Assembly: GCA_951406725.2 (NCBI GenBank)
Contig: OX597816.1
Location: forward strand, 140,182,001 to 140,246,000
Reading direction: 5' to 3'
DNA length: 64,000 nucleotides
From: Octopus vulgaris
Taxonomy: Eukaryota
Within the stretch, counting starts at the first letter, position 1. The number at the start of each line of letters is the position of its first letter. The notes under the pieces were generated by a model that worked only from the letters and a program-made list of their open reading frames with translations, ran no database searches and was not told the DNA's origin. This document shows positions 18,132 through 58,745 of the stretch, piece after piece. Position numbers and translations under genes: made by a program.

Positions 18132-20049
18132 TATTTTATGATTGATTTTATAGAAGACACTCTAAATAGGCTAAAAAACTGTGAACAAAAAGTTGTTGTT
18201 ATGTAATCACTTTAACTTGGTTACGTAGTCACTTTTCTAAAGCTACAAACACGGATGTACATATGCGAAAAGACAAAAAAGCGGCTTTTGTCCGTTTGAT
18301 TCATGTCTAGAACTTTCAATAAAAGAACAAAGGAATTTCATGATTTTATAGCTAAAATAAACTCTCACTGAAGTAATAGCTTTATACAGAAATGTCAATC
18401 CTAGAGAAAATAAGTTTAGTGTTATTACATGAAATACCCGTTTCATTAAAAAGAGCTGTGTAGAATAAAAGAGATGTGCTTCTGATTGTTTAAATATGTA
18501 TTTGAAAACTTGATGAGTGCTCTTTCCTGTCTGCCAAATGCTGATATCCTTAACTTTTTCTCTAATACACTACCACTAATTTCAAGTTTTCCTAAATTTT
18601 CCAATTTTTTCTTTTCTTTTCTTTTTTTAGCTTAGAATGACCTCAGACAAAAAAAATTACTAGAAAGCCCCAAAATAACTTTTTGAAATGTAATTTCACA
18701 TTTCTAAGAGAAATTGACATCAGAGTTAGTTTTACGGAAAATTTTGGCACAAGGCCAGCAAATTCGGAAGGAGAGGTTAAGTCGACTAGAGTGCTCAATC
18801 AATATTGATTTTATCGATCCCTTAAGAATGAGAGGCAAAGTTTGCCTCGGTGGAATTTGAACTCAGAGCGTAAGAACGTACGGAATGCCGTTAAGCATTT
18901 TCCGGCGCGGTAACGATTCTGCCAGCTCGTGCCGCCTTAGTTTTACGGACAATACTGATTTTACTGCCAAAGTTGACGGCCAATGGAATTCATGATATTT
19001 ATTGACTTAGTATTTTAGCCTGAAATTAGGAATTGTGTATTTGTTTATTAGTTTTTTGAAGCTGCTTGCTGATTAATTTATTTTGATAATTTCATTTATG
19101 TTTTTACTGATTCTTCTACATTTCCCTCATTATTTATTTTTTATTTTCATTATATTTTTGTTATTATTGTCAAAAAGGCGACAAGCTAGCAGATTATTGG
19201 AACATCAAATAAGGTGCTTAACAGTATTGGTTCTGGGTTTTACCATCTAAGTTCAAATCCCGCCGAAGTCCACTTTGCCTTTCATTCCCTTGGGGTGATG
19301 AAATAGAGTGCCATTCATCTTATTTGATGGGTCCTAGGATTAATCGAATGTAAGAGGTTAATCAAAGGTATTGTTTAACCCCCTACTATCGAAATTTCTG
19401 GCTTTGTGCCTAAATTAGAAACCGAAGGATCGACTGTGTGTTTCATCTTTTCGGGGGTCAATAAAATAAAGTACCAGTCAAATGGAGGCGATATAAACGA
19501 CTGTACACCTCCCCTGAAAACTGATGGCCTTGTATCAAAGTAGAAAGTTAATATTGTAGTTAGCGTATTTAGTATATTTTAGTAAGTATATTTTTGTTCG
19601 GAATTGATACTTGAAGCGTTATTTCTCCGAGACTTGCATTTTTTAACCCTTGATCTACTCTTCGTTTGCCTTTTCAATTTTCTTTCTATATTCCTTTTTA
19701 AATAATCAACAAGGCAAATTTTATCGTGTTATTTTCCTTCCACTGTGAGAGTTCATCCACTAACTATTATTGCGCTTTATTCTTTGTGTTCTAAAACCTA
19801 AAGTGTTTCGCGCATGCAACATTCTATTGCTTTGCTTACATTGGTCTGTGAGAGCTAAATATTTCTCTCTCTCTGATAGTTTCTTTTGTTTTATTTGTAA
19901 TGAATATTTTTTGAAAGTTGTTCTAATCTAGTTTCTTAGATGTTTAATGTTTTTATTGTTTGTCATAAAATTCCTTGTACCCGGGTAACTATTTGAGTTT
20001 AATCGTTGTTATATAAGATTGTTTCCTTAAAAAAGAGAACTCATGTTTC

Positions 20050-21660
20050 TTTTCTGGACCTAATGTCTGTTTAGGTAGAGTTTGGTTCTGATGAGCTAAG
20101 TAGCACAATGTCGTCTACAGATATCAGCCGAACCATGCTACTCACACCTATGGGGACATCATTTACGCAACAGTCGTGCATATCGCTCCAGTGCAAAATT
20201 ATTATGAAAAGAAGAGGTGACAGTACATATCGCTACTGAAGTTCAATATCTACATTGAAAGGTTCCGATTTAACACCATCTGTGCATTCGTACAGAGACT
20301 TCATGGCAACCAGAACTTGCCCATTAATCCAAACCCACTGCAAACTCTATACAGCATGTCCCGCAGCATGAGGTCCTATGCTTTTTCGAGGTCTATAAAA
20401 CAAGCGTGCATCTTTTGTCAATGTTCCTACGACTTCTTGAATACCTCCCACAGAATGAATATCTTGTCGGTTGTGCTGTAGCCAGGATGAAAGCCACACT
20501 GGGGTTCAACAGTCTCCCAAAAACTCTTTTCCAGACACCTATCGCAAACTACCAGGGAAGTTCAACAAGAAGATTCTTCTATAATTAAATCACTCTCTCT
20601 TGTCGTTCTTTTTAAAAATTGGGATTATATACAAGTCATCCAGAGAATACCCTCTCCATTTAAGGCTCTTACATCTGAGGCCCGAACTTCATCCCCTCCA
20701 GTGACCTTGCCACATTTGAGTGCTTTAATCGCTTGTGTTACTTCAGCCTGTGTTAGATTAGTCTTTGCCACTAGGTACACAACATGTCAACACAAGGATT
20801 TTATCGAAACTGGATGTAGGAGATCAGCAAAGTAGTCTCTTTATCTCCCAAGGATGCTCTTATCTATAGAGAGAAGAACCCTAGCTAAGTTCTAAACGGC
20901 AGGTGTAGAAGAGGGCTTGTTACAAAGCTAGAGGATGGCTAGCCAGAATGCTTTATTGGCCAATCTAAAGTTAGAGTCCATCTTAACTCCAAAGCACTCC
21001 CCTGACGTTGTAACTGTCTTTGCAGCAACTTTTCGCGTCTCAATGTAACGCCTGTGCAGAGGAGAAGACTTGTTTCCAAAACAAGCTTTTTTCTCTGCTC
21101 GGGAGGCATTTTTAACTTCCTGCTTAAACTAGAGGATTCTTTTGTCACCTGGCTCCACATCCAGTCACATACGTCCACTGCATTGTACAGCCGAAGAAAA
21201 AATCTACCGAACAAAATAATCTCCCCTACGTTTCGACATCTTCAGTGTGTTCAGGAGGGGCTCTGGATTTGGATGCAATAGCACGCACATATTTGTTTCG
21301 GTTCCTTCATCTGCCAGGACTTCTCACTTTATCCAGTTAGTCGCACAGTTTTGTGAATTCTCCTTGCTGTGAATAGTCAAAGGTTGCAGACAACTAAGTA
21401 GAAATCAGCTGATATCTTCGTCCTTCTCTTTACACAAATGTCCAGCACAGAATCTATCAGTGACCTTTGTCCCAAAGTATCACAGTGCTAGAAGAATGTG
21501 TTCATAATGGAGATCTCGTTCTCAGTAAAGGAATCTAGTAAGTCTTCTTCATTTGTATTAAGTTCAGAGTCACAATCCAATTTCCATTTCCACAATCGCT
21601 TCTTTCCACGACAGTGATAGGTGCCAGCATGTGCATTGAAGTCTCCTTGTCAGGGCAAAT
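20050..21660 (-). mobile_element. Old, degenerate APE-RT LINE (RTE-like)
   Basis: Minus-strand remnants GDFNAH (~21630-21650), EQCGF-like and CFIDLEKA(Y)D (~20375-20410); many stops. Confidence 0.6.
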
Positions 21661-22400
21661 GACTTGGTCTTAACTACATCTAAAGCTACAGTAACCTTGT
21701 TTGGCATGAATTTCGTTACTAACCGCTCCTAATACCGCAGTTGCTGGAAACTCAGTGTGCATCACTCCGAGGACAGCAGAAGGACCTGCACATAACCATC
21801 TGTCATTTTTCCGGCAAGACTTGAGGTTTTGGTCGAAGTTTTCCTCATTAAAGAACCGAAGCATGGCATGTCCACCACATCTTTAAACTTGTTAAGTAAC
21901 TACTTGGCACAGACCAAACGGCTTTCCCTGTTTCAGAAGTGAATTAACCACTCATTTGTACATATGACTCATATAACTTCTCCCCTTGCCCCACAATTCT
22001 GATAGCCCACTCCGATGCCCGAAGCTCTTTGGTGATGGCTTTCATTTATTTCCAGAATCATTAGTAATGTTTTGAACCCGTTAGATGAATTACGATGTTC
22101 CTATGAGAATATCCGAACGTTTAGAATGTTTTTTTCACTTTGATGCAGTATAAAAATTCCAGAGTTTCCAATCCCATCTGAATTTTGAGTACAAAAGAAT
22201 TTGCAACATTTAGAAAGTTGACAATTTCTAAATCGCTGTGTTCCGCGCATATGGCAACAATAACTATTGCATACTTTTTTTTATTTCTTGAGTTAGCATT
22301 TTATCTGCCATGGGGATCGGAAAGATATTAAATACTTTTTATGTGGTTTGAGAAGAGCATTATTCTGATTATCAAATATCCTCAAATACCCTTCGCACTC

Positions 22401-22403
<3 letters not shown>
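21661..22403 (-). mobile_element. Tc1/mariner-superfamily (DD37D/maT-like) transposase fragment
   Basis: RFFNEENFDQ..NDRWLC..P..V..VMHT.FPA..VLG.VS.E resembles the FSDEK..NDRWL..TKFPA.VMV.G.VS segment of DD37D-type transposases. Confidence 0.6.
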
Positions 22404-22476
<73 letters not shown>

Positions 22477-22634
22477 TGTGTGTGTATATGTTTGTGTTTG
22501 CTTGTATATGTATATATTGACAGATGGATGAATCGATCGAGCGATCAACCGATCAGTCGAGCGATGTATGTGTGTGAAAGTTTGTGCGTTCTTGTGTATG
22601 TGTGTGTATGTGTGTGTGTATGTATCTATGTATG

Positions 22635-22668
<34 letters not shown>

Positions 22669-22692
22669 TGTATGCACGCACATTGATATGTA

Positions 22693-22750
<58 letters not shown>

Positions 22751-23280
22751 TGTGTGTATATGTGTAATACATGTATTATTACTAGGTTAAGAAGTACACA
22801 CACGGTCACATATGCACACAAACATAAACACACACTCAAGCTCACGTACAAACATATGTGATTAGTATGTATTTAGCAGCTAGATTGTACTGAGTACCTT
22901 CAAATGACACTCCTCTTCTCTTAAAAGAAAATAAAGGATACATTGACCAATGTAACCCTAATATATGCAAAAAGACCGCCTCGCTATGGCTAGACACCTT
23001 TCATCGCAGGTATACACTATCTGGGGGTTGTAAAACAAAAACCTGTCCAACATGTTGCAACAGATATTACAATGCATTTCCTGAGTTAAACTGAGAGTTC
23101 CGGAATCGGTAGTATTGTAAAATTACAGCACGTGTTATATCGAGTGATGCCAACTATTGTAGAAATGAAATTTAAAAAACTGCAGTCAAACAAAGACGTA
23201 AAATGTGAATTGTAGGATGGGCAATGTGTGTGGGAGAGAAGAAATCATATGTAATTAGGAAGACACCTTTAATGTGCTAC

Positions 23281-23431
23281 GATTGGTATTGTATGAGCTA
23301 AATTTGACTTACAGTATACGCCCCACCTATCATTTCAAAATTTTTCTATATATATATATACTTCAGCCAAGAGAATTACATACGACTTTGACCAAGCCAA
23401 ATCTTCTGGAAGTATACAGAAACAAGCTAAG
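23281..23431 (+). promoter_or_regulatory. Putative promoter and non-coding first exon of tyrosinase copy 1
   Basis: Reverse CCAAT (gattgg, 23281), GC/CACCC-like gccccacc (~23320), TATA tract (23347-23360), then a perfect donor aag|gtaagt at 23431/23432. The ATG exon begins with an acceptor only 2 nt before the ATG, implying an upstream exon. Confidence 0.45.
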
Positions 23432-24408
23432 GTAAGTGTCTTCCTGTATTATGACATTTCGGTACAGCACTAATACTGAAGATCTGATTTATCAACTGTT
23501 TCCCAGTCTCATGTAAAAGACAGAACTTTTGCGACGTTTGCAATGACACTAAATGACTTGATTAGAGAGTTTACACTAAATTCCTCCATTTTTTTCTTTG
23601 GTTATCTTTACTCTAGGATCGATTAAATTGACACCTCTAATATTCTGCGATCGATTCAAACTTTGAAACCAATGCTCTTTATTCTTCTGAAGAGCGCTAG
23701 CTTAGAAAATAGAGTCAGAGAAATTACCTAATTCTCAAGAGCGAATTCAAAAATCGTAAATCGCACCGCAGCAGAGAAAACCTAAGAAAACCTGCTTAAT
23801 AACTTTGGAACATTGTTGTAAAGGTATTACATTTTGATAATGCCTATACTGCCAATAAATGCATGAAAGTTATACGATTGTATCTCCTTTCTCCCGCACT
23901 GAAAGTCTCCAGAAAAATTCAAATAAGCTTGACAAGCAAAAATATAATAGTCATACTGAATCACCGTTGAAGTCTGACAGTACGACTGAAAAGCATTTCT
24001 TCATAATTAATGTCTAAGCAGAATATTTTGAAACAATGTTTACAAGGTTAGCCCAATCTTTCACTAGGTAGAATACATATATACGCTATTTTCCCCATAG
24101 ATATATGAAATGTAAATACATAACATAAACATACGTCTCCTGAAAAGCTGTGTTATATTCGTGTCGCTGAATATAAGGTGAAATATTTATGATTAAACTT
24201 AGTCATAAGCTTGAGGACATGAAAAGCATGTATGGAAGAACAATTTTTTTTATTCTTAAATTTTTTTTTTATTTGTTCCTACATTTGAATTCTTTCGTTG
24301 TGTTTATGTGGCAACTATCAAATTGATTTGGCCTGAAAAGTAAATAAATTAATGAGTAAATGCATATTTGCAATATATAAAGTAAACTATACAGAGGTGT
24401 GTGTGTGT

Positions 24409-24491
<83 letters not shown>
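24409..24491. repeat. (GATA)n microsatellite
   Basis: Direct tract; also in copy 2 at ~57734-57817. Confidence 0.95.
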
Positions 24492-24492
<1 letters not shown>

Positions 24493-25255
24493 TTTTTCTC
24501 AAAATAACCACCAAAATTGCCAATACATTTCTGTTTCCTTGCCACAGAATAAAAAATGGACTTTTCGAAGAAATCTCAACCACATTTGCTGAAGAATTGC
24601 TCTACTAATTGCTTAAGCTCATTTTGATTTTTAAGAATATGTCCTTATAAATATTTCTTAAGATAGAAAAATATACTAAATTCGCTCAGAGTGAAATAAG
24701 GGCTCTAGGATAGATTTCAGAACGTAGCGAAACGAAGAAGCTTAAGTTGTTGAAAAACTGACAGCAGTAGTGTGTATTTTCTTGAAGATGCGAGAATAGA
24801 ATGTTATTTTCCTTCCTGATACTGCCTACCATTTGACTTTATAATCTGATAGATTTGTTAGCAAAATCCCATAAGATTAGGCCAAGGTGCTCTCCAAAAT
24901 AAAACTCAGAAAATTCTATTGATCTTTAGTGAATGGTTATATTATTGATCTTCATTGATGGCTTTTGTTCGCTAGATGATATCTTAGTTTCTGAGAAGCA
25001 AAAGTAGACTGGTGCTTTGTCATGTATTTTACCTTTTACTTGTTTCAGTCATTAGACTTCGGTCATGCTGGGAGGTTTTTTGAAGAAGTTTTTGGCTGAA
25101 TAAATTGACCCCAGTACTTAATAATATTTTCTTTTTTTGCTAAGCCTGGTGCTTATTCTACCGGCCTAGTTTGCTGAACCGCTAAGCTACGAGGATGTAA
25201 ATACAGCAACACCGATTGCCAGTGGTGGTACGGGACAAACACAGACACAAAGACA

Positions 25256-25309
<54 letters not shown>

Positions 25310-25331
25310 CATATATTCATACATATATACA

Positions 25332-25417
<86 letters not shown>

Positions 25418-25423
25418 ACATAC

Positions 25424-25683
25424 ATATAGTGTACATTTAAACACATAAGGAATCCACTCGTGGAATTCAACACGCTAGAAAGAACACCTAGGTTCTATAA
25501 CCACAAAAATTAGGTATAAAATTCGACAGGAACGAAATGAAACTTGATGGTAAGATGTTTTTATTTTTCATTTCGTTCCTGTCGAATCTTATCCCTAATT
25601 TTGTGGTTATAGAACCTATGTGTTCTTTCTAGCGTGTTGAATTCCACGAGTGGATTCCTTATGTGTTTAAACGAACACTATAT
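25424..25683. mobile_element. Foldback MITE / long hairpin (~118-bp arms, ~23-bp spacer)
   Basis: 25424-25542 is the near-perfect reverse complement of 25566-25683; TA-rich flanks. Confidence 0.8.
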
Positions 25684-26021
25684 ATTATGACTAATTCATG
25701 GTCTTTTGGGACTAAATTTTTACACGTTAGGCCACTGGAAGTGAAAATTTTAATTAATTTTCCATTTCCCTTTGATATGTTTAAGTATATATATATATAT
25801 ATATATATACATGACGGGCTTCTTCCGGGTTCCGTCTACCAAATCGTTTTACAAGGCTTTGGTCAGACACTTGGCAAGGTGCCATGCAATGGGGCTGAAC
25901 CTGGAACAATGTGGTTCGGAAGCAAGTGTCTTCTACTATAACCTCGGGACGATCAAAGCCTTGTAAGAGGATTTGGTTGACGGAAACTGAAAGAAGCCTG
26001 CCGTATATATATATATGTATA

Positions 26022-26080
<59 letters not shown>

Positions 26081-26355
26081 ATGCCTGTAAGTATGTGTGT
26101 GTGAGTGTGTGTGTTTTTGTGTGTCTTTGTCCTCCACCACCGCTTGACAGCCGGCGTTGGTGTGTTTACGTCCCCGTAACCTAGCGGTTCGGCAGAAAAT
26201 CTTTGGTGCCAGGTTAAAAAGTAAGTAGTGGGGTCGATGTCGATTCATTCGACTAAAACTCTTCAAGGCGGTGCCCAGTACGGCAGTAGTCTAATGGTTG
26301 AAACAATTAAAAGATAAAAGTTAAAGATGAAAAATACATACATACATACATACAT

Positions 26356-26760
26356 AGGCGCAGGAGTGGCTGTGTGGTAAGTAGCTTGCTAACTAACCAC
26401 ATGGTTCCGGGTTCAGTTCCACTGCGTGGCATCTTGGGCAAGTGTCTTCTGCTATAGCCCCGGGCCGACCAATGCCTTGTGAGTGGATTTGGTAGACGGA
26501 AACTGAAAGAAGCCTGTCGTATATATGTATATATATATATATGTGTGTGTGTGTGTTTGTGTGTCTGTGTCTGTCCCCCTAGCATTGCTTGACAACCGAT
26601 GCTGGTGTGTTTACGTCCCCGTCACTTAGCGGTTCGGCAAAAAGAGACCGATAGAATAAGTACTGGGCTTACAAAGAATAAGTCCCGGGGTCGATTTGCT
26701 CAACTAAAGGCGGTGCTCCAGCATGGCCGCAGTCAAATGACTGAAACAAGTAAAAGAAAA
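26356..26760 (+). mobile_element. Intact tRNA-derived SINE with LINE-like 3' tail
   Basis: Head aggcgcaggagtggctgtgtggtaag (A-box-like) and gggttcagttcc (B-box-like); internal TA/TG tract; tail ggcggtgctccagcatggccgcagtcaaatgactgaaac followed by A-rich repeats. Confidence 0.8.
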
Positions 26761-27120
26761 AGAAAGAAAAGAAAAGAAAGAAAAATACATACATACATAC
26801 ATACATACATACATACATACATACATACAACATACATACATGTCTATGACACTGAAGCCTATTATAAAGTTCATTTATTCCATATTTTATACTGATTCAA
26901 TTTATTATATTCAAGGTTACTCTTTATTATTTATCAAGAAGATAGTTTTGTTTCAAAATATCGCAGTTTTGATGTCTAACTCTCTTTTCGCTTATTAATT
27001 TAATTTTAAATTTAAAAATGAAAAAATTTTTAAATGAGGGTGAGAAATTAGATATTAATTTAATTAACATCGATTTCACACCAGTGGTCTAGCATAAAAA
27101 AATTGAAGGTTCAGTAAAAT

Positions 27121-27164
<44 letters not shown>

Positions 27165-28380
27165 TAGTGGTTTCCCTCTAATATATATATATAATACAAT
27201 TTTACTGAACCTTCTCTTTTCGCTTATATACATGTTTATGTATGTGATTTATGTGAAAAGACATAAATATTCGTCCATCGATAAATCTTCTATCATACTA
27301 GATGAACGTAAAACTGCACTTTTGCAAAATTCGTATCATTTAAAATAAAATGCTATTTAGATACTAAGTAACGAGGATGGTAATGTAATATACTTTATAC
27401 TTTGAAAGATTACATTCTACATTGAAACTGCCTTTCTTCAAATTCACTTACGAGGCACATGTATTCAGTCCCATCATACAAGGTGCAAATTTTTACGTGC
27501 CTTAAACTGAGTACACGTGTGTTACCTATATTTCGGAATGTGTGATTGTGAACATTTTTTTTTATATACATATAAACATTTTGATGCTCGACATTTCATT
27601 TCTTCTTTACAATTCTTTTACTCGGCAGTGCAAAAAAAAAAAATCAACACACCGCAAAAAAAACAAAAACTCAAAATTTCCCAGTTCGCATCATCGAGCG
27701 AAATCACATTCACAAACCAGTCCTCACAAACCAATCCTCATAATGAAACAAAAATACTCACAATGAAAAGATCCCCTTTCCCCCACCTTACAAGTTAGAA
27801 ATATATACTGCTGCTCATAAGACCTCCATAAAACGTATGAAGTATAATTTTCAGCTGAGTGGAATCACGATATATCTGGAAAAACTCTCCAATAGTATCA
27901 CTGACTATTCATGTGTCATAGGTTTCATCTATCTTCCACATAACTATTGCAGCTATTTTAATAGCGAATCCTTGTCTACAAAGTTCTGTTATCTATTCTT
28001 TTCTCCATAATTGTGAGAATTGTAAAGCTAATATTTAACATTTCACTTGTAATTTTCTTATTTTCATTGTCTTTGGTGCATGTCATTGAAACGATTGAGA
28101 AAAAAGATTGTCGAAAATCGATAGTTATTATCACCGACAGTATTGTGTGTCTGTGACCCAACCATTGTAATTACATCAACCCCGTACACCTTGACATAAT
28201 CAGGTAGAGTGAGTATATAATTCACAATGCATTGATGTCGTTAATGATTGTTCGGTTGCGTGTGCCAAATCTACCATAGCATAACTGATCTTGTTTTATC
28301 ATTTCTTTTATCCTGATGTATTTTTTTTTAAATTGTCAACACATGATGTTTTCCATTTTTTTTTTTTTCATTTTCCAGAA

Positions 28381-28704
28381 ATGAATCGTCTCTACTTTGC
28401 TTTCGTCATATTGCTGAGTTTTGTTTATGTGAGTTCATATATTCAAGAAGACATTGAGCAATGCTATCGTCAACTGGGCTCTACTACAAGCGATGCTGAC
28501 ACCCAGTTGCAGTTCTGTATAGAGCAGGTACAAATGAACTGCTCTTCCTTTAAGTGGAGCCCAATGAATGTTGTTTATGAATCACCGAAACAATCAGGAG
28601 CAAATAATTTGATTATACCTCGAACGAGGAAGGAATATAGATTGCTTAGTAACCAAGAAAGATACGATTTCCTTCGTAGCTTATATCTTTTAAAGCAAGA
28701 TACG
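28381..28704 (+). CDS. Tyrosinase-like gene copy 1, coding exon 1 (signal peptide and N-terminal region, 108 aa)
   Basis: Acceptor ttttccag|aaATG; hydrophobic signal MNRLYFAFVILLSFVYVSS; RTRKEYRLLS..ER..F..L..LK motif typical of tyrosinase domain starts; donor acg|gtaaga, phase 0. Confidence 0.88.
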
Positions 28705-28740
28705 GTAAGAATGATTTATTATTTCTATATAAACATATAC

Positions 28741-28945
28741 GGAGAGCTGGCAGAATCGTTAGCACGCCTGGCAAAATGCTTAGCGGCATTTCGTCCGCCA
28801 TTACGTTCTGTGTTCAAATTCCACCGTGGTCGACTTTACCTTTCATCCTTTCGGAGTCGATGAAATAAGTACCAGTTACGAACTGGGGTCGATGTAATCG
28901 ACTAGCTTCCTCCCCCAATATTTCAAGCCTTATGTCTATAGGAGA
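28741..28945 (+). mobile_element. tRNA-derived SINE in tyrosinase intron
   Basis: gagctggcagaatcgttagc..gttcaaattcc..ggtcgacttt.cctttcatcctttcgg.gtcgat..aagtaccag; same family as 3867 and 33063. Confidence 0.75.
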
Positions 28946-29495
28946 ATGAATTATTTCTATACAAACAACTATCAAGGAGACACTTGTTAATATTATTTCA
29001 GATAAACTTATATACTTACACAATACTATTGGTTACAGTGTTTACAACAAGGGTCATGAAATTCTTTTTATGATAGCCCACTTTTAAGTTTTCTCCACAT
29101 TTTCACATGGCACCACATATGTATATGTCATACATACATAAAAATATGCTCATGAGTTCCCAACCATATCCATTGCTAGTAATGTTTAAATAAGCAAAAG
29201 TTAAAGTAATCGGCAGGCAAAAAGATATCAACCAACTGTTCAATGGTCCACAGAGAACATGCCAGGAAACACCTGTGTGTGTGTATACGAGTCTGTGTGT
29301 GTGTGTGTGTGCGTGTTGTGTATGTGTTTGAGTGTGTGTGTGTGTGTGCGTGTGTGTGTGTGAGTGTGTGTGCGCGCTATGCATATATACATACATTCAT
29401 TCATACATACATACATACATACATACATACATACATACATGCCTACATGCATACATACATACATACATACATACATACATACATACATACATACA

Positions 29496-29526
<31 letters not shown>

Positions 29527-32500
29527 GTCAGGTCACTTATGAGGCTCTCATAAGTGCTACTGGTAACATGGAATCCAGTACAACCTATTGCATGCAACTA
29601 AACTGGCACCTCCACCAGGCTATCCTTGTGAGTGGGGTTGCTAGAAATCCAGCAGGATTAAAAACAAGACCTCTTGAAAGGTCGGATGAACCTAGTGCAG
29701 GCTCAACGGCTATCTAACAATAGCACGGGTACGCAGAAATTCCGGGATGGTGGCCGGCGTGCTGAAAGACCACTGGGAGTGAGGCACCCCTCAGATTTTG
29801 TTAAAGCATGTCTCTCGGAGAAGGTCACTCTAATATAAAACCAGATATGCAAGGGATGACATTGAACATTTTGGGGATCTTTGGTTTGTGCTAGAGATCA
29901 TGGCGCTCCCACATCCCTGAGCCTGCAACTCATATTGGCACCAGGCATCTTGTTCCGGCTTGTCTCTGGAGAATGTCAATAAATTTGAGAGGGTATGTGA
30001 GGTGACGTGCAAGCCTTATTGCTCAATATGTGTCTTTCCCCCACCCTCTATATATTTATTTATGTGGCGATGGGAAGGTGGTGAAGCATGCAGACCTGAC
30101 GGGCTGGAAGCATGTAGTCAACGACCTGCACGTAGGCGGCCCATGCTAGATATAAAGTCGTCTCCTTGTAGCCCAAGACAGCGGTAGGATTCGGTTGCTG
30201 CATGGGTGTCTGAGCAGCTCCATTTGGAGAGGACACTGCTCACTCGAAGACCGGGGAGTTTCTTGAAAAGGTGAACCAAAAAATTGTCTGTCTTTCTATA
30301 TCTGGTCAGTTTAGCACAAATGATGGATGTCCACCCTGCGCTTGAGAAACAAAGAGACTTTTATTTACAAAATCTGGATGGAACTTGAACATTTCATGTT
30401 AGAATGTGCGCACTCTGTTGGATAACAAAAGTGATTGTAGGCATGAAAGACGCACTACACTTGCTTCTCGCGAGTTGAACTGTTATAACATTGATATAGC
30501 TGCACCTTCAGAGACTCGTATAGAATGTGATTGTCAGATTGAGGAAGTAGGAAGTGGATACACTTTTTTTTGAAGGGGAGGCAGAAGAGGGAGCAGAGAG
30601 AGGTTGGTGTTGGCTTTGCAGTTCGATCTGATACCCTTAAGAAGTTGGAGGAGCTTCCTGTTCCTATAAACGAACGTCTAATGACTCTAAGATTGCACCT
30701 GAAAGGTGAGCGGTTTCCTACTCTAATAAGTGCCTATGCACCCATTCTGACTAGCTGTGGTGAAGATAAAACTATATTTTATACCCAGCTGAGAGCCATA
30801 CTTAGGAAAATCCCAAATTCTGATAAAGTCATTCTAGTGGGGGATATCAATGCCAGGGTTAGAACAGACTGGCAAACATGGAACTCTCTAAGACGTTTTG
30901 GAGTAGGGAAAATGAATAGCAATGGTCTAATGCTGCTGGAGCTTTGCGATGAACATGGACTTTACATCGCAAGCACTCATTTTATGCACAAAGGTGACCA
31001 CACAACAACGTGGATGCATCCAAGGTCTAAAGTTTGGCACTTGCTGGATTATGTCATCATCTGCAAGCGTGACATCTATGACATTTGTAATGTCAAGTCC
31101 TTTCATGGATCAGAATGCTGGACAGATCACAGTCTGGTGCGAGCAAAGTTCCGGATGATGATTAAAGTGAAAGAGAGAAGATAGCCAGTCAGCACTCCTC
31201 GGTGTCTGAATATCTACAAGGTATATGAGGAAAGAGCTTCAGACTCGCTTGTCCAGCATTGAAAATACTGCAGCATGGGAAGATTTTTCGAGATCAGGTT
31301 CTTCAATGTGCTGCTGAAACACTGGCAAATGCTACTGCCAGACACAGAGACTGTTTTGAGGAAAATGATGCTGAAGTTCAGCGACTATTAGCTGTAAAGC
31401 GCCATGCCCATAATGTATTGCTACACAGAGGACTTTTTGCTGTGCAGCGAAATCTAGCACTTGCCCACTATAGCAGTGTAAAATCACTACCGCAGCGATC
31501 TCTCAGGAAGATGCAGAACACCTGATGGGAGGATCTTGCTCGTGATGTTCAGGCTGCTGCTGATGAAAATGACAGCAAGAAGCTTTACTATCTTATGAAG
31601 TAAGTTTATGGGCCTAAGAGCTCCACATCAGTTCCTTTGCTTTCCAAAGAGTCTTCCACTCTATTTACTAAATCAACAGAAATCACAGGTCGCTGGATAG
31701 AATTACTTCTTTGAAATCCCAAACCCCGAGCCAGTTGTGGATGAAACAGTGATTGATACTATGCAACAAAGACCTATCATTGGCTCCTTAAATTCGACGC
31801 CTTCAATAGATGAAGTAATGACATCAATAAGTAAATTGAATCTTGGTAGGGTTACCTGAAAGGATGGAATTTGTGCTGAGGTCTTACGATTTGGTGGTGA
31901 TTATAACATACAGTCCCTTCATGAACTTATTAGTGCAGTCTGGAGGGATGGTGCAATGCTTAAGGACTGGAAGGATGCAATTATTCTTCCTCTCTATAAA
32001 GGAAAAGGAGCCAGAACAATGTGTGGTAACTACAGAGGTATTGCTCTACTATCAGCTGCTGGCAAGGCTCGGGCAAATATTCTTCTTACCCGCCTAAATG
32101 GGTGTCTCGTAAATAACGTCCTATCTGAATCTCAATGTGGCTTCCGATCTGGCAGAGGGACAATGGATATGATTTTCACAGCAAGGCCGATGCAGGAGAA
32201 GTGCTATGAGCAGAATATGGATCTTGTGCAGGTATTCATTGATTTAATGAAGGCCTTTGATACTGTGAATAGGGCCTTGCTATGGAAAACACTTGGCAAA
32301 CTTAGATGTCCGGATCACTTTGTATCTATAATTAAATCATTTCATGATGTGATGGAGGCTTGGGTCAATGTTGGTGGTGGCATGGCGGGATCCATTCCTG
32401 TAGAGAATGGTATCAAGTAGAATGCCCCAACACTCTTTTCTTTGTACTTTTGCTGCTGCTTTTACTCATGCCTTTTCTAAGGTTAGCGCTCTGGGAACAT

Positions 32501-32628
32501 ATGTCAAATATCAACTTCTGGCCGCCTCTTTAATCTGCGCCGATTTGCTGCCAATTCAAAAGTTTTCCAGTCTCTTATTCGTGACGCCCTTTATGCAGAT
32601 GACTGTGACTTAGTCACTCATACAGGAA
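29527..32628 (+). mobile_element. Degenerate RTE-clade LINE (5' UTR + APE + RT, 3'-truncated) in tyrosinase intron
   Basis: SETR, GVGFAV, GDINARV, TWMHP, LDY, WTDH; NYRGIALLS, ESQCGFR, FIDLMKAFD, YADD (~32592). Stops and frameshifts; 5' boundary approximate. Confidence 0.88.
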
Positions 32629-33062
32629 AACACAGCTGTTGCAATAATAACACTGTACTTCCATGGGCCCACAGCTATGACATCAATATCAACATTAGCT
32701 TGTTAAAGGTCATCTATATTACGACATCTAATGATATTTAGTGCTAATCTCTGATTATTTTGTCGATATAATTTATCATCTCAAGTTAGAATATACAGAC
32801 ACTGCTCCTCAGACAGTTGTACTCTTTTAATTCTTTTTGAAGAGCATCTCTTCACCCTGAAGAAGGAGGCTTGATTTTTCCAGTGTTTGTTTTCTTCCAT
32901 TACTGGTTGCAGATGTTTGAGAAACTACATCTGCCAACATTATCAAGGAACTCCGAGCACCCAGAAACAGATGTTGGACTTGTAACATCATGCCTCCTCC
33001 CCTCAAATTCTCTGAGTCTATACTATCTAAATACGTTTGCTCTATTAGTATATAAATATATG

Positions 33063-33262
33063 AAGGCGGTGAGATGGCAGAACTGTTAGGACGCCGAGCA
33101 AAATGTATAGCATCATTTCGTCTGTCTATATGTTCTGAGTTCAAATTCCACTGAGGTCGACTTTGCCTTTCATCCTTTCGGGATCGATAAAATAAATACC
33201 AGCTGATGTAATCGACTATACCCCTCCGCCGAAATTGCTGGCTTTGTGCCAAAATTTGAAAC
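33063..33262 (+). mobile_element. tRNA-derived SINE
   Basis: aaggcggtgagatggcagaa..gagttcaaattcc..gaggtcgactttgcctttcatcc..tgtgccaaaatttgaa. Confidence 0.75.
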
Positions 33263-33502
33263 CCTTTCATAAATATACATATATTTATATTTGAATGTTA
33301 ATCATCTGAAAATTTTAATTCTTTGCCTTTTATTTATTTACATGTGTATATATTCAGTATATCAAACTCAAGGAGTTTTATGTGTTTGCATCATTGTCTA
33401 CATACACAGATATATCCATTCCTCCATCCATCCATCCATCCATCCATACATACATACATACATACATACATACATACATACATACATACATACATACATA
33501 CA

Positions 33503-33534
<32 letters not shown>

Positions 33535-33801
33535 CGCATGCATAAATACATATATACTAAGAAGGAGAGTAAAAATGTAAGACTGACATATAAAATGGAA
33601 ATTAATATTTTAAAAGACAACTTTCACAGAAGAAGGAAAAAAATATATTTGATATGAAAACAAATCTCCTGTTCTTTCCAGAATAATAGAAATCTTTCAT
33701 CGAAAACAGAAATCAAAATTAAAAGGCATAACTTCAGATAAAACTTATAAACGTTTGCTGTGTCCTAATCATTATGATTTTTAAAATTATTTCTTTTACA
33801 G

Positions 33802-33914
33802 AGACTCTCACCAAATGTATTCGATTCTATCGCCTTCCTGCACACTGGTGATACTGCAAGAAACGCCCATGCTGGTCCTACATTTCTTCTCTGGCACAGA
33901 ATCTATTTGAGAAT
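33802..33914 (+). CDS. Tyrosinase-like gene copy 1, coding exon 2 (CuA site); absent from the ORF track
   Basis: ttcttttacag|AGA..AGA AT|gtaagt encodes RLSPNVFDSIAFLHTGDTARNAHAGPTFLLWHRIYLR with three CuA His. Spliced to the next exon it completes H-x4-F-L-x-W-H-R-x2-L-x3-E. Confidence 0.93.
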
Positions 33915-34134
33915 GTAAGTCATGCAATCAAGTATTATTCTTCCAGGTTCCTTCTGCTCTTTTCCTGTTTCTTTATCTCTTTCTTTATTGATTTTTTTAA
34001 CTTTTGCCTCTTTCCCTTCCCATATTTCCGTTATCTTTTTGTGTTCTTATGTTCCTCCTCCCCTCTCCTCCTCCTCCTCCTCATCATCATCATCATATTA
34101 TTATTATTATTATTATGATTATTATTATTATTAT

Positions 34135-35065
34135 CTTTCGATTCTATTTACATTTCTTGCCGAGTGTCTTTCTGACATCTAGGGCAGGGAAACGTACTGT
34201 ATACATTGGTAGGCCATTAAAACAAACACATCAGACTGTTCATTTACAGAATCATGTGTTAGAGGAAAAGGAAAAAATAAAAAATAGAAAAGTAAACAAA
34301 TAAAATAAAGGTGTGGTGGGGGAGAAAATTCAAGCGACAATGCTCTTCTCAATACGTGTGACGTACCGGTTAAGACAATCTTTTGCACTTCCTGCATGTA
34401 TGGTAAGCCAGGGATCGTTCTTTAAAAAATTTCAGTTTCGTTTTTTTTATCATTTCAGGATGGTGCTTGTACCATTTGTCAGCAGTTTTGATTTTATAAT
34501 GCCCACACATTATCCATTGTAGATATTGGCCAACTCTGTCATGTCTTGATTTGTACTCTACAGGTGCTAAAACCTTACACCCAGAGATTAGATGGTCAAC
34601 TGTTTCTATCCCATCGTTGCAGTATCGGCACTTTGGGTCTACACCATTTTTCATCACATTGGCTTGATAGTACCAGGTCAATAAGCTCTGATCTTGGGCA
34701 ACCAAAATAAATCCTGTACTCTCTGACTTTAGCCCTGAGCTCCGTAGCCACTAAATGGGTATGCTTCTGATCTACATCAGCTTGTTTGCTACGGGCCATA
34801 TATTTGCCATGCTGAGGTTTTTGTTCCCACCTATCAGCCAATTGTTCAAGCGCAATTTGCTTTGCTATTGAGTTCAACTTCTTTGCAACTACAGCTGCTA
34901 CACTTTCCTCATGCTGTTCAACCTGGATATTATGTATAAACTCACTTGAAAATTTTTTGCTCTCCTTCATAACAGACTGAATCTTCTTACGTCTTTCATG
35001 GTTTTTAATTAGCTTTAGCATCCAGTTGTTAGATGTTTCAAGATATTTTTCCAGTTCAGTTGTGG
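34135..35065 (-). mobile_element. R4/Dong-like retrotransposon 3' fragment in tyrosinase intron
   Basis: AQDQSL, CRYC..ETVDHLISGC, RHD, VQKIVLTGTSHVLRRALS. The 3' UTR matches 41050-41115; flanked by TTA/TCA tracts. Confidence 0.85.
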
Positions 35066-35070
35066 TGGTT

Positions 35071-35141
<71 letters not shown>

Positions 35142-35713
35142 TATCGTCGTCGTCGTTATTATTATTATTATTATTATTATTATCAACTATGATATTGAAT
35201 AAACACCTATGCTTTAAATATATTAGTATATATAATATGAAGTAAACTACAAGATATTTATAAATTTCCATTTCAGATGCAATTTTTTACATTAATGAAT
35301 AGCGTGAAACCCATTTAGACTTCTTAATTTGTTAACATAAATCGAACGCAATAATAGACACCCCATATATCTCATTATTTATAGGAACTGTGAGTCATGT
35401 TGCTCCATCAATTTGTTTTTCAAAGTAAATGATATCTACAGTCGCTGTGCACACACATATTCTGCGATCACTGGGGCGTACACTCCCATCCGATCTTAAA
35501 AGTCTAAGATAAGTTTATAAATATACACTAACCTTTGCTGGCGAATTCTTGAGATATGCCAGTATACAAAAGATTAAAGCGTCTCTTGTACTAGAACAAT
35601 TTGTGCATAATATAATTTTCCCTTGATAAATGAAATTAGTTAATCGATAAAAAATATGTAAATATGTTTTCTACGTATTAAATAGGGTTTACATTTTTTT
35701 TTTTTCATTTTAG

Positions 35714-37317
35714 CTTGGAAGATGCTCTTCGTGAAAAAGTACCTGGTGTAACAATTCCATTTTGGGATCCAACTCTTGACAGTCATCTTCCTAATCCTCG
35801 AGATTCCATTATGTGGTCAGATGAGTTAATGGGAACTATCAATGGTTTCGTCACTAAAGGGCCGTTTGCTAACTGGAAAACACCAATTGGTTATCTAGTA
35901 AGGAACGGGGGTTTCAGTACAAGGTTACCGACAAGTAGTAACATCGAAGATGTTCTCACTCGAACGAAACTCGAAGAGATCTCTGAACCAAATGCAGAAG
36001 ATCGATATAACCTTGAATCCATGCATAATTCTATGCATGTTGCTATTGGAGGTCACATGGCTCGGGTACCATCATCGCCCATGGACCCAGTTTTCTGGCT
36101 ACTCCACAGTTACGTAGAACTTGTCCACACGCGTTTCACTGAAAACCAAAGGCGACACAACGTTAATCCCGCAACAGATTATCCTTCGAATTATGGTTTA
36201 AATGTTTACGCTCCCAATCAAAGTATTGGTCTTATGAATTTAACCGTTGCAGAAGCATTAAAAAATACTAGTTCTTACACTCATTTCTACAAATATGACT
36301 ATAGTTACTTGAAAAACTGTACTCTCGATCCAAAGGTATGTAATTCTCCATACCTAACCTGCAATAATGGTAGATGCGAGTCGAAATCTAGAAACTCAAC
36401 TCGTTGCAGTACTTTAATTCCCTATCAGAATATGTTTTGTATCAACCGTAGATGCGATGTAGATGAATGGGCATTTATTCCGGTTGAAGTTATTTACGAA
36501 CGACCTTTCGACACGATGAAATTTGGAAATTTTCCTATCAAAAACGGCGTGCCGAATTTGCTGAATGATCTGTATGATGATAATCGACTTCAAAATTCCT
36601 CCGGTAATTCTAACAGAAATAATTGTCAAATAAACAAGTGTTGTGGTCCTGCAGGAAGACTCAATGTTCGAGCTATTGGTTTAAATTATTTTGGAACCTA
36701 TGAAGAGATGGCGGTGATAGATCGCAGATTAGCTGTATCATCGGATATATCTTACTTGGGAATCAGAGACCCGCAGAAAAATAACAGTGTAGTATTTTTG
36801 TCAGCGTCAGAACAATGTGGAAGAATATGTCGTCCTTCTTGTTTAGTGCCGGGTTCAAATCCGCCGAGATACATACAATGTATAGGATTGTTGAACATAA
36901 CACGTTACAACGCTACTTTGTACGGTAAAACACTCGCAGACGCTTACATGAACGTGTGGGATTATGGAAACCAGATACGACCGAAACTGAGACATGAAAA
37001 TATTCCAATAGTGTTCCATTGTGATGACAGCCAGTGGCCATTTAACAACAACAATACATCTACAACAACGACGACGACGACGACAACAACAACAACCACC
37101 ACAACACTGCCGACAACAACAACACCACTACCAACAACAACTACAACATCAACGACGACAACAACAACACCAACTCCAACGACGACAACAACAACACCAA
37201 TTCCAACGACGACAACCACAACACCACTACCAACAACAACAACCACAACACCAACTCCAACGACGACAACAACAACACCAACTCCAACGACTACAACAGC
37301 GACAACTACATATCGAA
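35714..37317 (+). CDS. Tyrosinase-like gene copy 1, coding exon 3 (CuB site, Cys-rich domain, Thr/Pro stalk)
   Basis: Acceptor ttttcattttag|c (phase 2); LEDALR..IPFWDPTLD, GPFANW, LESMHNSMHVAIGGHM..SPMDPVFWLLH (CuB); donor cgaa|gtaagt at 37317/37318 (phase 1). Confidence 0.93.
37043..37310 (+). repeat. Coding Thr/Pro-rich (mucin-like) repeat
   Basis: ACA/ACG runs with recurring ccaactccaacgacgac / ccactaccaacaac units giving TTTTTPTP / TTTTPLP. Confidence 0.85.
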
Positions 37318-37433
37318 GTAAGTGGCCTTTTTTTATCATATCATATGTTCATATTACATCGTGTTTGTGTAAGAGAAGGCCTAGTAGTCTGGTGATCGTA
37401 GTAGTTTAATGTAGGTGGTGGTAGTCCCAGCTG

Positions 37434-37815
37434 GTGGAGGCGCAATGGCCCAGTGGTTAGGGCAGCGGACTCGCGGTCATAGGATCGCGGTTTCGATTCC
37501 CAGACCGGGCGTTGTGAGTGTTTATTGAGCGAAAACACCTAAAAGCTCCACGAGGCTCCGGCAGGGGATGGTGGTGATCCCTGTACTCTTTCACTATAAC
37601 TTTCTCTCACTCTTACTTCCTGTTTCTGTTGTACCTGTATTTCAAGGGGCCGGCCTTGTCACTCTCTGTGTCACGCTGAATATCCCCGAGAACTACGTTA
37701 TGGGTGCACGTGTCTGTGGAGTGCTCAGCCACTTACACGTTAATTTCACGAGCAGGCTGTTACGTTGATTCGGATCAACCGGAACCCTCATCGTCGTAAC
37801 CGACGGAGTGCTTCC
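37434..37815 (+). mobile_element. Young tRNA-derived SINE with 11-bp TSD in the last tyrosinase intron
   Basis: Head ggaggcgcaatggcccagtggttagggcagcggactcgcgg..ggtttcgattccc (A and B boxes); TSD agtcccagctg at 37423-37433 and 37816-37826. Confidence 0.88.
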
Positions 37816-38303
37816 AGTCCCAGCTGATTTAACTAACTGGAGTGAGGATGGGGATAGCTTTATTAGGATTAAAGTAATCAAAATGTGAGACAGTGCAGGG
37901 CAACGTAATCTAGGGTAGTAAAGAGTTTTACTGCAGGTAATGTTGAATCTTCTATGCAATGGATTGTCTAAATGGATAGACTTTGATTGTATGGATTCTG
38001 ACTTCATGTTTCGTCACGATTTGCAATACGTCCTTATACGAGGCAAAAAACAATTATATCCATCATAGTTACATAGGAACCAAATGTTATTGTTCAGTAC
38101 TAATTTCTAAGTTTTGTTGTGTTAAGCTGATTAAAATATATCAATAAAGGTATTTTTTAATTAACGGTGATTTGAATTCAGTTAGGCATGTCATTAACAT
38201 ATCGGACAATTCTACATTGCCGCCGCGTAGCAATAGGTTAACTTTATTATATGCACTACCTACTCATCTATATATATATGGTGTGTGTGTGTGTGTGTGC
38301 ATG

Positions 38304-38367
<64 letters not shown>

Positions 38368-38910
38368 TATGTGTGTGTGTGTGTATAGATGAAGTGTCTT
38401 GTCTACATATTAATTATTGAGAGTGACAATGGACACAAAGCCTCCCTTAATATTATTCAAACTGAAAGCGGCGAGCAAGCAGAACCGTTACCGCGCCGGG
38501 CGAAAGGTTTAGTGGCATTTCGTCTGTCTTTACGTTTTGAGGTTGTCTTTATCTTTCATCGATAAAATAAGTACCAGAAATAAGTACCAGAAATTTCTGA
38601 CTTTGTGCCAAAATGTGAAACCGGTATTACTCAAACTGCCAAATTCCATACTGGTTTTCTGGCATATACATTTATCAAAAAGAGAAAAATGCTAAGAGAC
38701 AATCAGAACCTTTTAAATTACTTGGTGAACCTGACAACCAATGCAAGTGCCATTTCTTTGTTGTTACATATTAAGGGTAAGCTCAGCCACATCAAGCTTG
38801 CAACTCTCAACTTTACAAACGCCAGGACAATTAGTCTGTAAAGAATTGCAAATACTAGGCATATTACTGAAATTGTATTCTTTCTAATGTTTCTCGTTTC
38901 TCTTTTGCAG

Positions 38911-39098
38911 ACTGCTACAATCCCAGGAGCTGTACCTCTAAGAAACGATGTCGATGTAAAGATGGAGATAAACAATCTTGCCGAAAAAGTTGTTCCCATT
39001 ATGCTATTTGTTACTTTGGTCGTTACTATAAGAGGTCTTGTGGCTACGGTCGAAGGTTTGAAAAGTCCATTGGAAAGTGTGTTTATGGATACTGCTAA
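38911..39098 (+). CDS. Tyrosinase-like gene copy 1, last coding exon (basic Cys-rich, CBM14/chitin-binding-like); absent from the ORF track in this frame
   Basis: Acceptor tctcttttgcag|ac, phase 1 matching the upstream donor. Encodes NCYNPRSCTSKKRCRCKDGDKQSCRKSCSHYAICYFGRYYKRSCGYGRRFEKSIGKCVYGYC*. Total CDS is 2229 nt (743 codons). Confidence 0.82.
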
Positions 39099-54900: not shown

Positions 54901-55161
54901 TTGATGCGGTATAAAAATTCCAGAGTTTCCAATCCCATCTGAATTTTGAGTACAAAAGAATTTGCAACATTTAGAAAGTTGACAATTTCTAAATCGCTGT
55001 GTTCCGCGCATATGGCAACAATAACTATTGCATACTTTTTTTTATTTCTTGAGTTAGCATTTTATCTGCCATGGGGATCGGAAAGATATTAAATACTTTT
55101 TATGTGGTTTGAGAAGAGCATTATTCTGATTATCAAATATCCTCAAATACCCTTCGCACTC

Positions 55162-55220
<59 letters not shown>

Positions 55221-55373
55221 TTGTGTTTGCTTGTATATGTATATATTGACAGATGGGTGAATCGATCGAGCGATCAACCGATCAGTCGAGCGATGTATGT
55301 GTGTGAAAGTTTGTGCGTTCCTGTGTATGTGTGTGTATGTGTGTGTATGTGTGTGTGTATGTATCTATGTATG

Positions 55374-55407
<34 letters not shown>

Positions 55408-55447
55408 TGTATGTATGTATGTATGTATGCACGCACATTGATATGTA

Positions 55448-55492
<45 letters not shown>

Positions 55493-55494
<2 letters not shown>

Positions 55495-56009
55495 CACATA
55501 AAGGTGTCTTCCTAATTACATATGATTTCTTCTCTCCCACACACAATGCCCATCCTACAATTCATTTTACGTCTTTGTTTGACTGCAGTTTTTTAAATTT
55601 CATTTCTACAATATTGGCATCACTCGATATAACAGTGCTGTAATTTTACAATACTACGATTCCGGAACTCTCAGTTTAACTCAGGAAATGCATTGTAATA
55701 TCTGTTGCAACATGTTGGACAGGTTTTGTTTTCAACCCCCAGATAGTGTATACCTGCGATGAAAGGTGTCTAGCATGGGAGGGTCTTTTTGCATATATTA
55801 GGGTTACATTGGTCAATGTATCCTTTATTTTCTTTTAAGAGAGAGGAGTGTCATTTGAAGGTACTCAGTACAATCTAGCTGCTAAATACATACTAATCAC
55901 ATATGTTTGTACGTGAGCTTGAGTGTGTGTTTATGTTTGTGTGCATATGTGACCGTGTGTGTACTTCTTAACCTAGTAATAATACATGTATTACACATAT
56001 ACACACACG

Positions 56010-56050
<41 letters not shown>

Positions 56051-56579
56051 TGTGTGTATATGTGTAATACATGTATTATTACTAGGTTAAGAAGTACACA
56101 CACGGTCACATATGCACACAAACATAAACACACACTCAAGCTCACGTACAAACATATGTGATTAGTATGTATTTAGCAGCTAGATTGTACTGAGTACCTT
56201 CAAATGACACTCCTCTTCTCTTAAAAGAAAATAAAGGATACATTGACCAATGTAACCCTAATATATGCAAAAAGACCGCCTCGCCATGGCTAGACACCTT
56301 TCATCGCAGGTATACACTATCTGGGGGTTGTAAAACAAAAACCTGTCCAACATGTTGCAACAGATATTACAATGCATTTCCTGAGTTAAACTGAGAGTTC
56401 CGGAATCGGTAGTATTGTAAAATTACAGCACGTGTTATATCGAGTGATGCCAACTATTGTAGAAATGAAATTTAAAAAACTGCAGTCAAACAAAGACGTA
56501 AAATGTGAATTGTAGGATGGGCAATGTGTGTGGGAGAGAAGAAATCATATGTAATTAGGAAGACACCTTTAATGTGCTA
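55493..56579. repeat. ~1.1 kb palindrome (inverted duplication) centred on (TA)n, present only in copy 2
   Basis: 55493-56010 is the reverse complement of ~56048-56579, with scattered 1-2 nt deletions; mirror-image ORFs 55897(-) and 55907(+). Confidence 0.9.
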
Positions 56580-56580
56580 C

Positions 56581-57731: not shown

Positions 57732-57817
<86 letters not shown>

Positions 57818-58587: not shown

Positions 58588-58636
<49 letters not shown>

Positions 58637-58647
58637 TTCATACATAT

Positions 58648-58744
<97 letters not shown>

Positions 58745-58745
58745 C

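Follow-up and report, generated by a model that had tools for sequence, protein, structure and literature searches.

We analyzed a 64,000-nucleotide stretch of the Octopus vulgaris genome (the window: contig OX597816.1 of assembly GCA_951406725.2, positions 140,182,001 to 140,246,000 of the forward strand), which contains a four-exon gene for a secreted tyrosinase ending in a small, cysteine-rich domain of predicted CBM14/peritrophin-A fold. A preliminary description, made from the letters of the window, had joined the exons through GT-AG introns in phases 0, 2, and 1 into a coding sequence of 2229 nt and 742 amino acids (aa). Splicing of the window sequence reproduced this model, with no internal stop and with a pyrimidine tract in every intron. 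All exons lie on the forward strand. Coding exon 1 (28381..28704; 324 nt, aa 1-108) encodes a signal peptide (aa 1-20), a two-Cys helical hairpin, a linker, and the start of the tyrosinase fold, and exon 2 (33802..33914; 113 nt, aa 109-146) holds the complete first copper site (CuA). Exon 3 (35714..37317; 1604 nt) encodes the remainder of the catalytic domain with the second copper site (CuB), E247, N251, and F273 (35714..36311; aa 147-345), a 15-Cys region made of a hairpin module followed by an immunoglobulin-like beta-sandwich (36312..37046; aa 346-590), and a Thr/Pro stalk specified by an array of 3-nt and 27-nt repeats (37056..37313; aa 594-679). Coding exon 4 (38911..39098; 188 nt, aa 681-742, stop codon TAA) encodes the basic 10-Cys domain of CBM14/peritrophin-A type (hereafter, the tail) and is followed by AATAAA motifs at 39238 and 39254. 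A strong 3' splice acceptor, consisting of a T tract and CAG (28355..28378, forward strand), places its AG at 28377-28378, 2 nt 5' of the ATG, and recurs likewise in a second copy of exon 1 described below; at least one upstream non-coding exon is therefore expected. A decayed long interspersed nuclear element with endonuclease and reverse transcriptase pieces, lying within intron 1 (30543..32420, forward strand), is not part of the gene.

The joining of the exons goes beyond chance because exons 2 and 3 cover consecutive parts of the PF00264 profile (positions 2-38, then 42-212), because octopod proteins are colinear with the model, and because the acceptor at 38911 is unique: the interval 37400-52000 has 17 strong candidates, of which it is the first and the sole one to open a Cys-rich frame in phase 1. 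Reading through intron 3 leads to a stop at 37409, as the preliminary description had stated; we rejected this stop as the true end, and by inspection P0006 and several other relatives have similar read-through-like tails. Proteins P0002 (O. vulgaris), P0003 (Octopus sinensis), and P0004 and P0005 (both Argonauta hians) are colinear with all four exons in the frames first proposed, and the O. bimaculoides model P0011 spans the junction of stalk and tail. Identity between the window tail and three distinct octopod tails is 38-48%, and 10 of 10 Cys are unchanged throughout. In a tree of catalytic domains, the window protein joins the four octopod proteins in a single supported group. Judged from these comparisons, the four-exon model is almost certainly correct.

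The best match in public annotation, P0001 (O. vulgaris, 764 aa), is identical to exon 1 at 108 of 108 residues and has a further match at 61772, in the second copy; the annotation fuses two tandem copies and is corrected by the gene model given here. In both copies, P0001 is spliced out of exon 3 from a cryptic donor (AAG/GTATGT, 36333..36341 of the forward strand, cut after 36335) and then enters exon 4 in frame 0. The frame of exon 4 proposed here is backed over that of P0001 by the four octopod proteins, and we rejected frame 0 as the main product, given that an open frame is expected, is shut in P0005, and would depend on a donor missing in relatives. Frame 0 might still serve a short isoform, in which the 36335 donor would make exon 4 dual-coding and supply a hydrophobic, possibly membrane-anchoring tail. 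The donor is consensus-like, frame 0 stays open for 69 codons and includes a hydrophobic stretch, and only 345 of 20000 synonymous recodings of exon 4 were both open and equally hydrophobic. However, 12896 of the 20000 recodings left frame 0 open anyway, P0005 has a Met-Ile pair that imposes a frame-0 stop, the donor is not present in P0002-P0004 and P0006, and P0001 is unreliable here because two genes are fused in it, so that such an isoform is very improbable.

The preliminary description had recognized a secreted type-3 copper tyrosinase, and the catalytic domain bears this out. PF00264, which it had proposed as a check, scored above its cut-off of 22.6 bits on exons 2 and 3 (26.9 and 68.5 bits; E = 7.4e-6 for exon 2). 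All six copper ligands are present, namely H122, H131, and H140 in CuA (H131-x8-H140) and H250, H254, and H277 in CuB, together with the waterkeeper E247 and an Asn/Asp-type first activity controller, N251, a pair tied to tyrosinase/monophenolase activity in section 10 of PMC11803259. Glu281 occupies position +4, where Asp is usual (Asp in 92 of 97 aligned rows). As a stand-in for the gene product we folded P0003 (identity to the gene 93-100% in exons 1-2 and 85% in exon 3) on a 97-row alignment, with a mean predicted local distance difference test score (pLDDT) of 86.5. The model runs from a signal helix through a two-Cys hairpin, the catalytic domain, a small Cys module, the beta-sandwich, and a disordered stalk to a folded tail; it has the four-helix tyrosinase fold and superposes on bacterial (Bacillus) tyrosinase over ~250 residues (Z 28, root-mean-square deviation [rmsd] 2.3-2.5 Å). 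The only strong hydrophobic stretch spans aa 4-18 (Kyte-Doolittle hydropathy 2.3, next best 0.93), which by hydropathy alone indicates a signal peptide and no transmembrane helix.

Within the family classification of PMC3658974 and PMC11803259, the spacing H122-x8-H131, which falls in the expected range of 7-9 residues, the CuA residues F136, R141, and E148, and F273, a Phe placed four positions ahead of the final His, are those of type a PPO, the alpha subclass among type-3 copper proteins. The window protein shares with this class the signal peptide, the short distance from the first to the second CuA His, and the lack of both a thioether Cys and a transmembrane helix, and differs from it in the additional C-terminal domain of CBM14 fold; none of the type a-e proteins has been experimentally characterized according to the portions of PMC11803259 consulted. 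A molluscan hemocyanin or type 2 PPO unit was rejected: hemocyanins are built of 7-8 repeated units, and their thioether Cys precedes the second CuA His by two residues, whereas the window protein has one catalytic unit, Asn at residue 129, and no Cys within aa 81-345. The gamma subclass (TYR/TYRP) does not fit either, as the protein is without a C-terminal transmembrane helix and the long CuA spacing. By its sequence, the gene product is thus a secreted mollusc tyrosinase of the alpha subclass (type a) belonging to an octopod tandem cluster, and it is in all likelihood an active phenoloxidase.

Two parts of the protein did not figure in the preliminary description. The first is the N-terminal two-Cys helical hairpin (C28 and C46; modelled in P0003 as helices 2-32 and 37-51), which we regard as a putative pro-domain. 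Among 68 relatives whose N-terminus is present, one of these Cys is kept by 61 and the other by 63. A basic R-x-K/R-R site precedes the catalytic domain in 34 of 50 scorable relatives. A complex prediction of the hairpin (P0003 residues 21-60) on the catalytic domain (76-370) scored 0.02. The second is the 245-aa, 15-Cys region at aa 346-590, which gave no match in Pfam, among PDB sequences, or in Atlas; its beta-sandwich (~390-585 in the P0003 model) has generic structural matches at Z 5-6 and is possibly a shielding domain. Taking range end points, the P0003 model superposes as far as residues 464-510 on latent chains from mushroom, Burkholderia, and hemocyanin, and from residues 40-44 onward on arthropod prophenoloxidases. 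These hints are indirect; the enzyme is probably secreted latent. The Thr/Pro stalk reported earlier agrees in both composition (76% Thr and 15% Pro over aa 594-679) and disorder (pLDDT <50 in its P0003 counterpart, 592-637), and is probably O-glycosylated; the protein sequence also has 12 N-X-S/T sites.

The tail has an isoelectric point (pI) of 9.6, 8 aromatic residues in 61 aa, and the Cys spacing C708-x5-C714-x9-C724-x12-C737-x4-C742, in addition to C682, C688, C694, C696, and C704. Folded alone on a 17-row alignment (pLDDT 80), it gave five strands, in keeping with the two-sheet (3+2) fold of CBM14 domains. The best 8 of 15 VIA rows were all of CBM14 fold (Z up to 6.3, rmsd 2.0 Å over 48 residues), as were Foldseek ranks 1-12 (E 0.039-2.1, none under 0.001). 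A 17-sequence tail profile matched 11 PDB sequences, which include chitinases, peritrophin-type allergens, a squid beak chitin-binding protein, and, as the best match, EHEP (E = 1e-8). In Atlas, the tail gave CBM_14 candidates scoring below 0.9 only. A CBM14/peritrophin-A fold is thus shown for the tail at the level of structure models; the earlier claim of a CBM14-like tail stands as regards fold and fails as regards the PF01607 cut-off (see below). Aplysia EHEP (PDB 8IN3), a mollusc peritrophin-A protein, is the closest solved match (Z 6.2, rmsd 2.7 Å over 53 residues). Its Cys pattern, C-x15-C-x5-C-x9-C-x12-C-x5-9-C, agrees with the tail exactly at x5, x9, and x12; the tail differs in its last gap (x4), its first gap (x11 or x13), and four extra Cys. 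EHEP also differs in having three domains and no enzyme, with tannin held in an inter-domain pocket (PMC10619976). Human chitotriosidase, a GH18 chitinase, offers a parallel in layout, with a catalytic domain, a flexible linker, and a CBM14 fold that may work alike, although its catalytic domain is unrelated. Its chitin binding needs Trp465 (PMC4844120), the equivalent of which, by our inference the position of Y739, is unconserved across the 10-Cys tail family.

The tail is not confined to octopods. An octopod-only tail profile found it in 14 of 147 representative relatives at E <0.01, and a deeper profile in 15, 12 of which were already in the profile; it was further present in 6 of 23 newly found proteins, none of them in the profile. 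Five of these six are named snail entries (Bulinus P0160, Candidula P0161, Biomphalaria P0162 and P0163, and Cepaea P0164), and Bradybaena P0033 is among the representatives. In 58 of the remaining representatives the chain stops directly behind the beta-sandwich; another 24 are longer and end without a tail, and 50 were not scorable. The pulmonate snail proteins share the catalytic domain, the Cys-rich region, a linker, and the 10-Cys tail with the octopus protein. They differ in sequence (~30% identity to exon 3 for P0033), in an insertion in the first tail loop, in their linker, which is short and of Pro/Val type where the octopus protein has its long Thr stalk, and, for P0033, in a basic cleavage site that octopods do not have; P0033, P0160, and P0161 exceed the Pfam CBM_14 cut-off, whereas the window tail does not. 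Two snail database entries already carry both Pfam labels. We therefore rejected an octopus-specific fusion, the same tail being found at the end of snail tyrosinases, and the preliminary description's picture of the layout as a special fusion was not borne out. Other C-terminal partners in the family are fn3 domains (Bulinus P0123) and an ShK domain (P0092 and P0181). Three Bulinus entries (P0160, P0177, and P0108) are named "prephenate dehydrogenase" in the database, an evident misannotation.

Tail presence was mapped onto an arbitrarily rooted tree of 72 catalytic domains, each aligned over 225 or more catalytic residues and 20 of them from proteins with tails; P0001, P0045, and P0139 were omitted by name and shorter matches by the length filter. 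The 20 bearers require 9 changes on this tree, a count in which tail losses are inflated by truncated entries scored as tail-less, and a single clade of bearers was rejected (approximately unbiased test, p-AU 2e-47). Further tail bearers among the representatives sit near bivalve sequences. Because the tails are homologous and attached at one position, we favor one old origin followed by repeated loss. The tail is probably ancestral in a mollusc subfamily, lost in many paralogs, and mostly missed by Pfam, which was run on 70 of the 147 representatives. The architecture would thus be an old, little-noticed mollusc design and not a new fusion. We found no description of a tyrosinase-CBM14 chain in the parts of the mollusc tyrosinase literature consulted (including PMC6368272, PMC6641155, and PMC6359903), although the architecture figure of PMC11803259 might show CBM_14; in work on shell and matrix, tyrosinase and chitin-binding domains are listed as separate members of the mollusc toolkit (PMC13425148, PMC8700984, and bioRxiv 2026.03.09.710468). 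A single chain joining tyrosinase and tail offers a direct and testable means by which quinone tanning could be kept to a chitin scaffold, both in snails and in shell-less octopuses.

We lean toward the view that the gene encodes a secreted, probably latent tyrosinase anchored on the epithelial matrix of arms or mantle for local quinone hardening. After removal of the signal peptide and glycosylation, the protein would be secreted in a latent state, its active site covered by the N-terminal hairpin, the beta-sandwich, or both, and would be opened extracellularly by proteolysis or conformational change. With Glu247 and Asn251 in place, it would then hydroxylate Tyr to DOPA and oxidize catechols to quinones, while the tail on its flexible stalk would retain it on the insoluble matrix of arm or mantle epithelium, where the quinones would cross-link and harden the matrix locally. 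Expression data on relatives are consistent with this site of action: genes of an argonaut tyrosinase cluster are high in arms and mantle (PMC9635652), and one argonaut tyrosinase contig exceeds 1000 transcripts per million in arms and is at zero in eyes and hearts (bioRxiv 2021.07.10.451900). Bivalve alpha tyrosinases have been tied to periostracum cross-linking (PMC5105077). In the expression literature searched, nothing was found for beak, radula, or salivary gland. A role of the tail as a matrix anchor is fairly likely; chitin, the likeliest single ligand, has a somewhat less than even chance of being the one bound.

Several observations pull in the opposite direction. The tail scores 18.8 bits against PF01607 (E = 0.0018), below the gathering threshold of 22.1, and of 26 homologous tails 20 fall under that threshold and 6 reach it. 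Scores in the fold comparison are modest, at best Z 6.3 and a Foldseek E of 0.039, and chitin binding is reportedly lacking in both of the top fold matches, EHEP and Der p 23 (PMC10619976). The position of Y739, two residues after the matching Cys, is aromatic in 2 of 17 aligned tails. With 58 of the representatives ending directly after the beta-sandwich, the tail is dispensable for the family at large. The absence of the basic cleavage site from the four octopod relatives weakens the case for latency. As to the tissue, the arm and mantle expression comes from argonaut cluster relatives that may not be orthologs of the window copy, and a Cepaea tyrosinase is equally expressed in foot and mantle (PMC7016172).

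Some of these observations suit an enzyme whose tail has polyphenols, tanned proteins, or a partner protein as its ligand in place of chitin (or serves in oligomerization), so that the enzyme adheres to the product it makes or to proteins of the matrix. EHEP, the best PDB sequence match of the tail and one of its top two fold matches, binds tannins and not chitin while sharing the x5/x9/x12 spacing (PMC10619976); the pI of the tail and the lack of conservation at the position whose role was established in chitotriosidase (PMC4844120) point the same way. However, the tannin pocket of EHEP lies between three domains and only one is present here, the window tail has Tyr at the Trp465-equivalent position and its full set of aromatics, and chitin-binding residues are unconserved even among true binders (PMC10619976). 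We consider a ligand of this kind possible but unlikely.

The gene is one of a tandem pair. A block containing the upstream region, exon 1, and the start of intron 1 (19521..30688, forward strand) is repeated ~33 kb downstream in the same orientation (52283..64000; blastn), where it runs off the window; the second exon 1 (61772-62092) encodes 107 aa and is 91% identical, and exons 2-4 of this copy lie beyond the window according to the second half of P0001. A third, upstream copy within the window was considered and rejected. The left edges of the blocks, 19521 and 52283, seem by inspection to fall within a short interspersed repeat, in its tail. With microsatellites excluded, non-coding divergence between the copies is 0.38% (34 of 9029 sites, with 16 of 6517 in the nearer block), whereas exon 1 differs at 12 of 321 sites, a roughly tenfold higher divergence (Fisher p = 3e-8; the densest non-coding window of equal size has 6 differences). 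At the best gap placement, all 12 exon-1 changes are nonsynonymous and none is synonymous, and 10 of them, together with a one-codon indel, fall within the 34 nt that encode aa 26-37 (28456..28489, forward strand), where every difference alters an amino acid. When the two halves of P0001 are compared over aa 109-353, a single residue out of 245 differs. Since relaxed constraint cannot exceed the neutral rate, the pattern calls for either selection or a short conversion tract, and the exon-1 hotspot stands out as a short segment that is a candidate for selection; taken alone, the all-nonsynonymous pattern has P ~0.05, as does the excess when the cluster is counted as one event. The copies may also be two alleles set in tandem by the assembly. 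The second copy alone contains a 1.1-kb inverted repeat (55492-56579; 97%) with its center close to a (TA)n run, either a fold-back duplication or an assembly artefact.

The pair resembles the four tandem alpha tyrosinases of Argonauta argo (Aargo001559-62), which are likewise secreted and for which gene conversion and expression in arms and mantle have been described (Yoshida et al. 2022, PMC9635652); it differs in being far younger, at 0.38% non-coding divergence, and in its hypervariable exon 1. The A. hians proteins P0004 and P0005, identical at 85 of 88 residues in part of the beta-sandwich and at 119 of 200 in the catalytic part, carry what looks like a gene-conversion signature resembling that reported for A. 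argo. The tail goes unmentioned in the main and supplement text of PMC9635652 so far as these were consulted, a statement that leaves its alignment figures aside, and the companion preprint calls the tyrosinase single-domain, high in arms, and absent from the eggcase proteome (bioRxiv 2021.07.10.451900).

The hotspot lends some interest to a role in defence, in which a skin, mucus, or wound enzyme would recognize the chitin of fungi or crustacean parasites through its tail and trigger melanization, with the hairpin evolving against proteases or inhibitors. Besides the purely nonsynonymous divergence of exon 1 between recently duplicated copies, tachycitin and chitotriosidase, both defence proteins, have the same fold as the tail, and argonaut relatives are expressed in epithelium (bioRxiv 2021.07.10.451900). 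Yet a conversion tract from a diverged paralog could explain the cluster, whose all-nonsynonymous character is of marginal significance, the literature ties mollusc alpha tyrosinases to shell and periostracum (PMC5379566, PMC8700984, and PMC5105077), and the literature searched yielded no induction or haemocyte data. We judge this role improbable.

P0003 (isoform X3 of O. sinensis) has third states at several of the variable exon-1 sites and is a mosaic, with exons 1-2 of window type (138 of 144 residues) and exons 3-4 of P0002 type (507 of 508); the switch falls at the exon 2/3 boundary, in the intron between CuA and CuB. Because of this mosaic and the nonsynonymous-only divergence of exon 1, one could imagine a modular diversifying system, improbable as it is, in which 5' cassettes (exons 1-2, with signal peptide, hypervariable lid, and CuA) would be exchanged onto shared 3' parts (CuB, beta-sandwich, and chitin anchor), the lid being under positive selection. 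The exchange would proceed by read-through splicing or by recombination across the tandem copies and, if true, would yield matrix-tethered tyrosinases with tunable activation. An annotation chimera combined with a short conversion tract would produce the same pattern.

A salivary enzyme acting on prey cuticle, one of the options in the preliminary description, is highly improbable: octopuses eat crustaceans and the protein is secreted with a chitin-type tail, but pulmonate snails have the same architecture, the expression reported for relatives indicates arms and mantle, and no salivary data were found in the literature searched.

The rest of the window consists in part of open reading frames for retroelement reverse transcriptase and endonuclease, among them one of 611 aa, together with a piece of a DDE transposase (5880-7715, 13356-14225, 30543-32420, 46739-49495, 50903-51727, and 17128-17481), which we take to be ordinary mobile-element debris. 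Near-identical dispersed retroelement ends, up to 98.9% identical, pair 5179-5622 with 41307-41750, 1-256 with 8312-8560, and 579-885 with 43677-43983.

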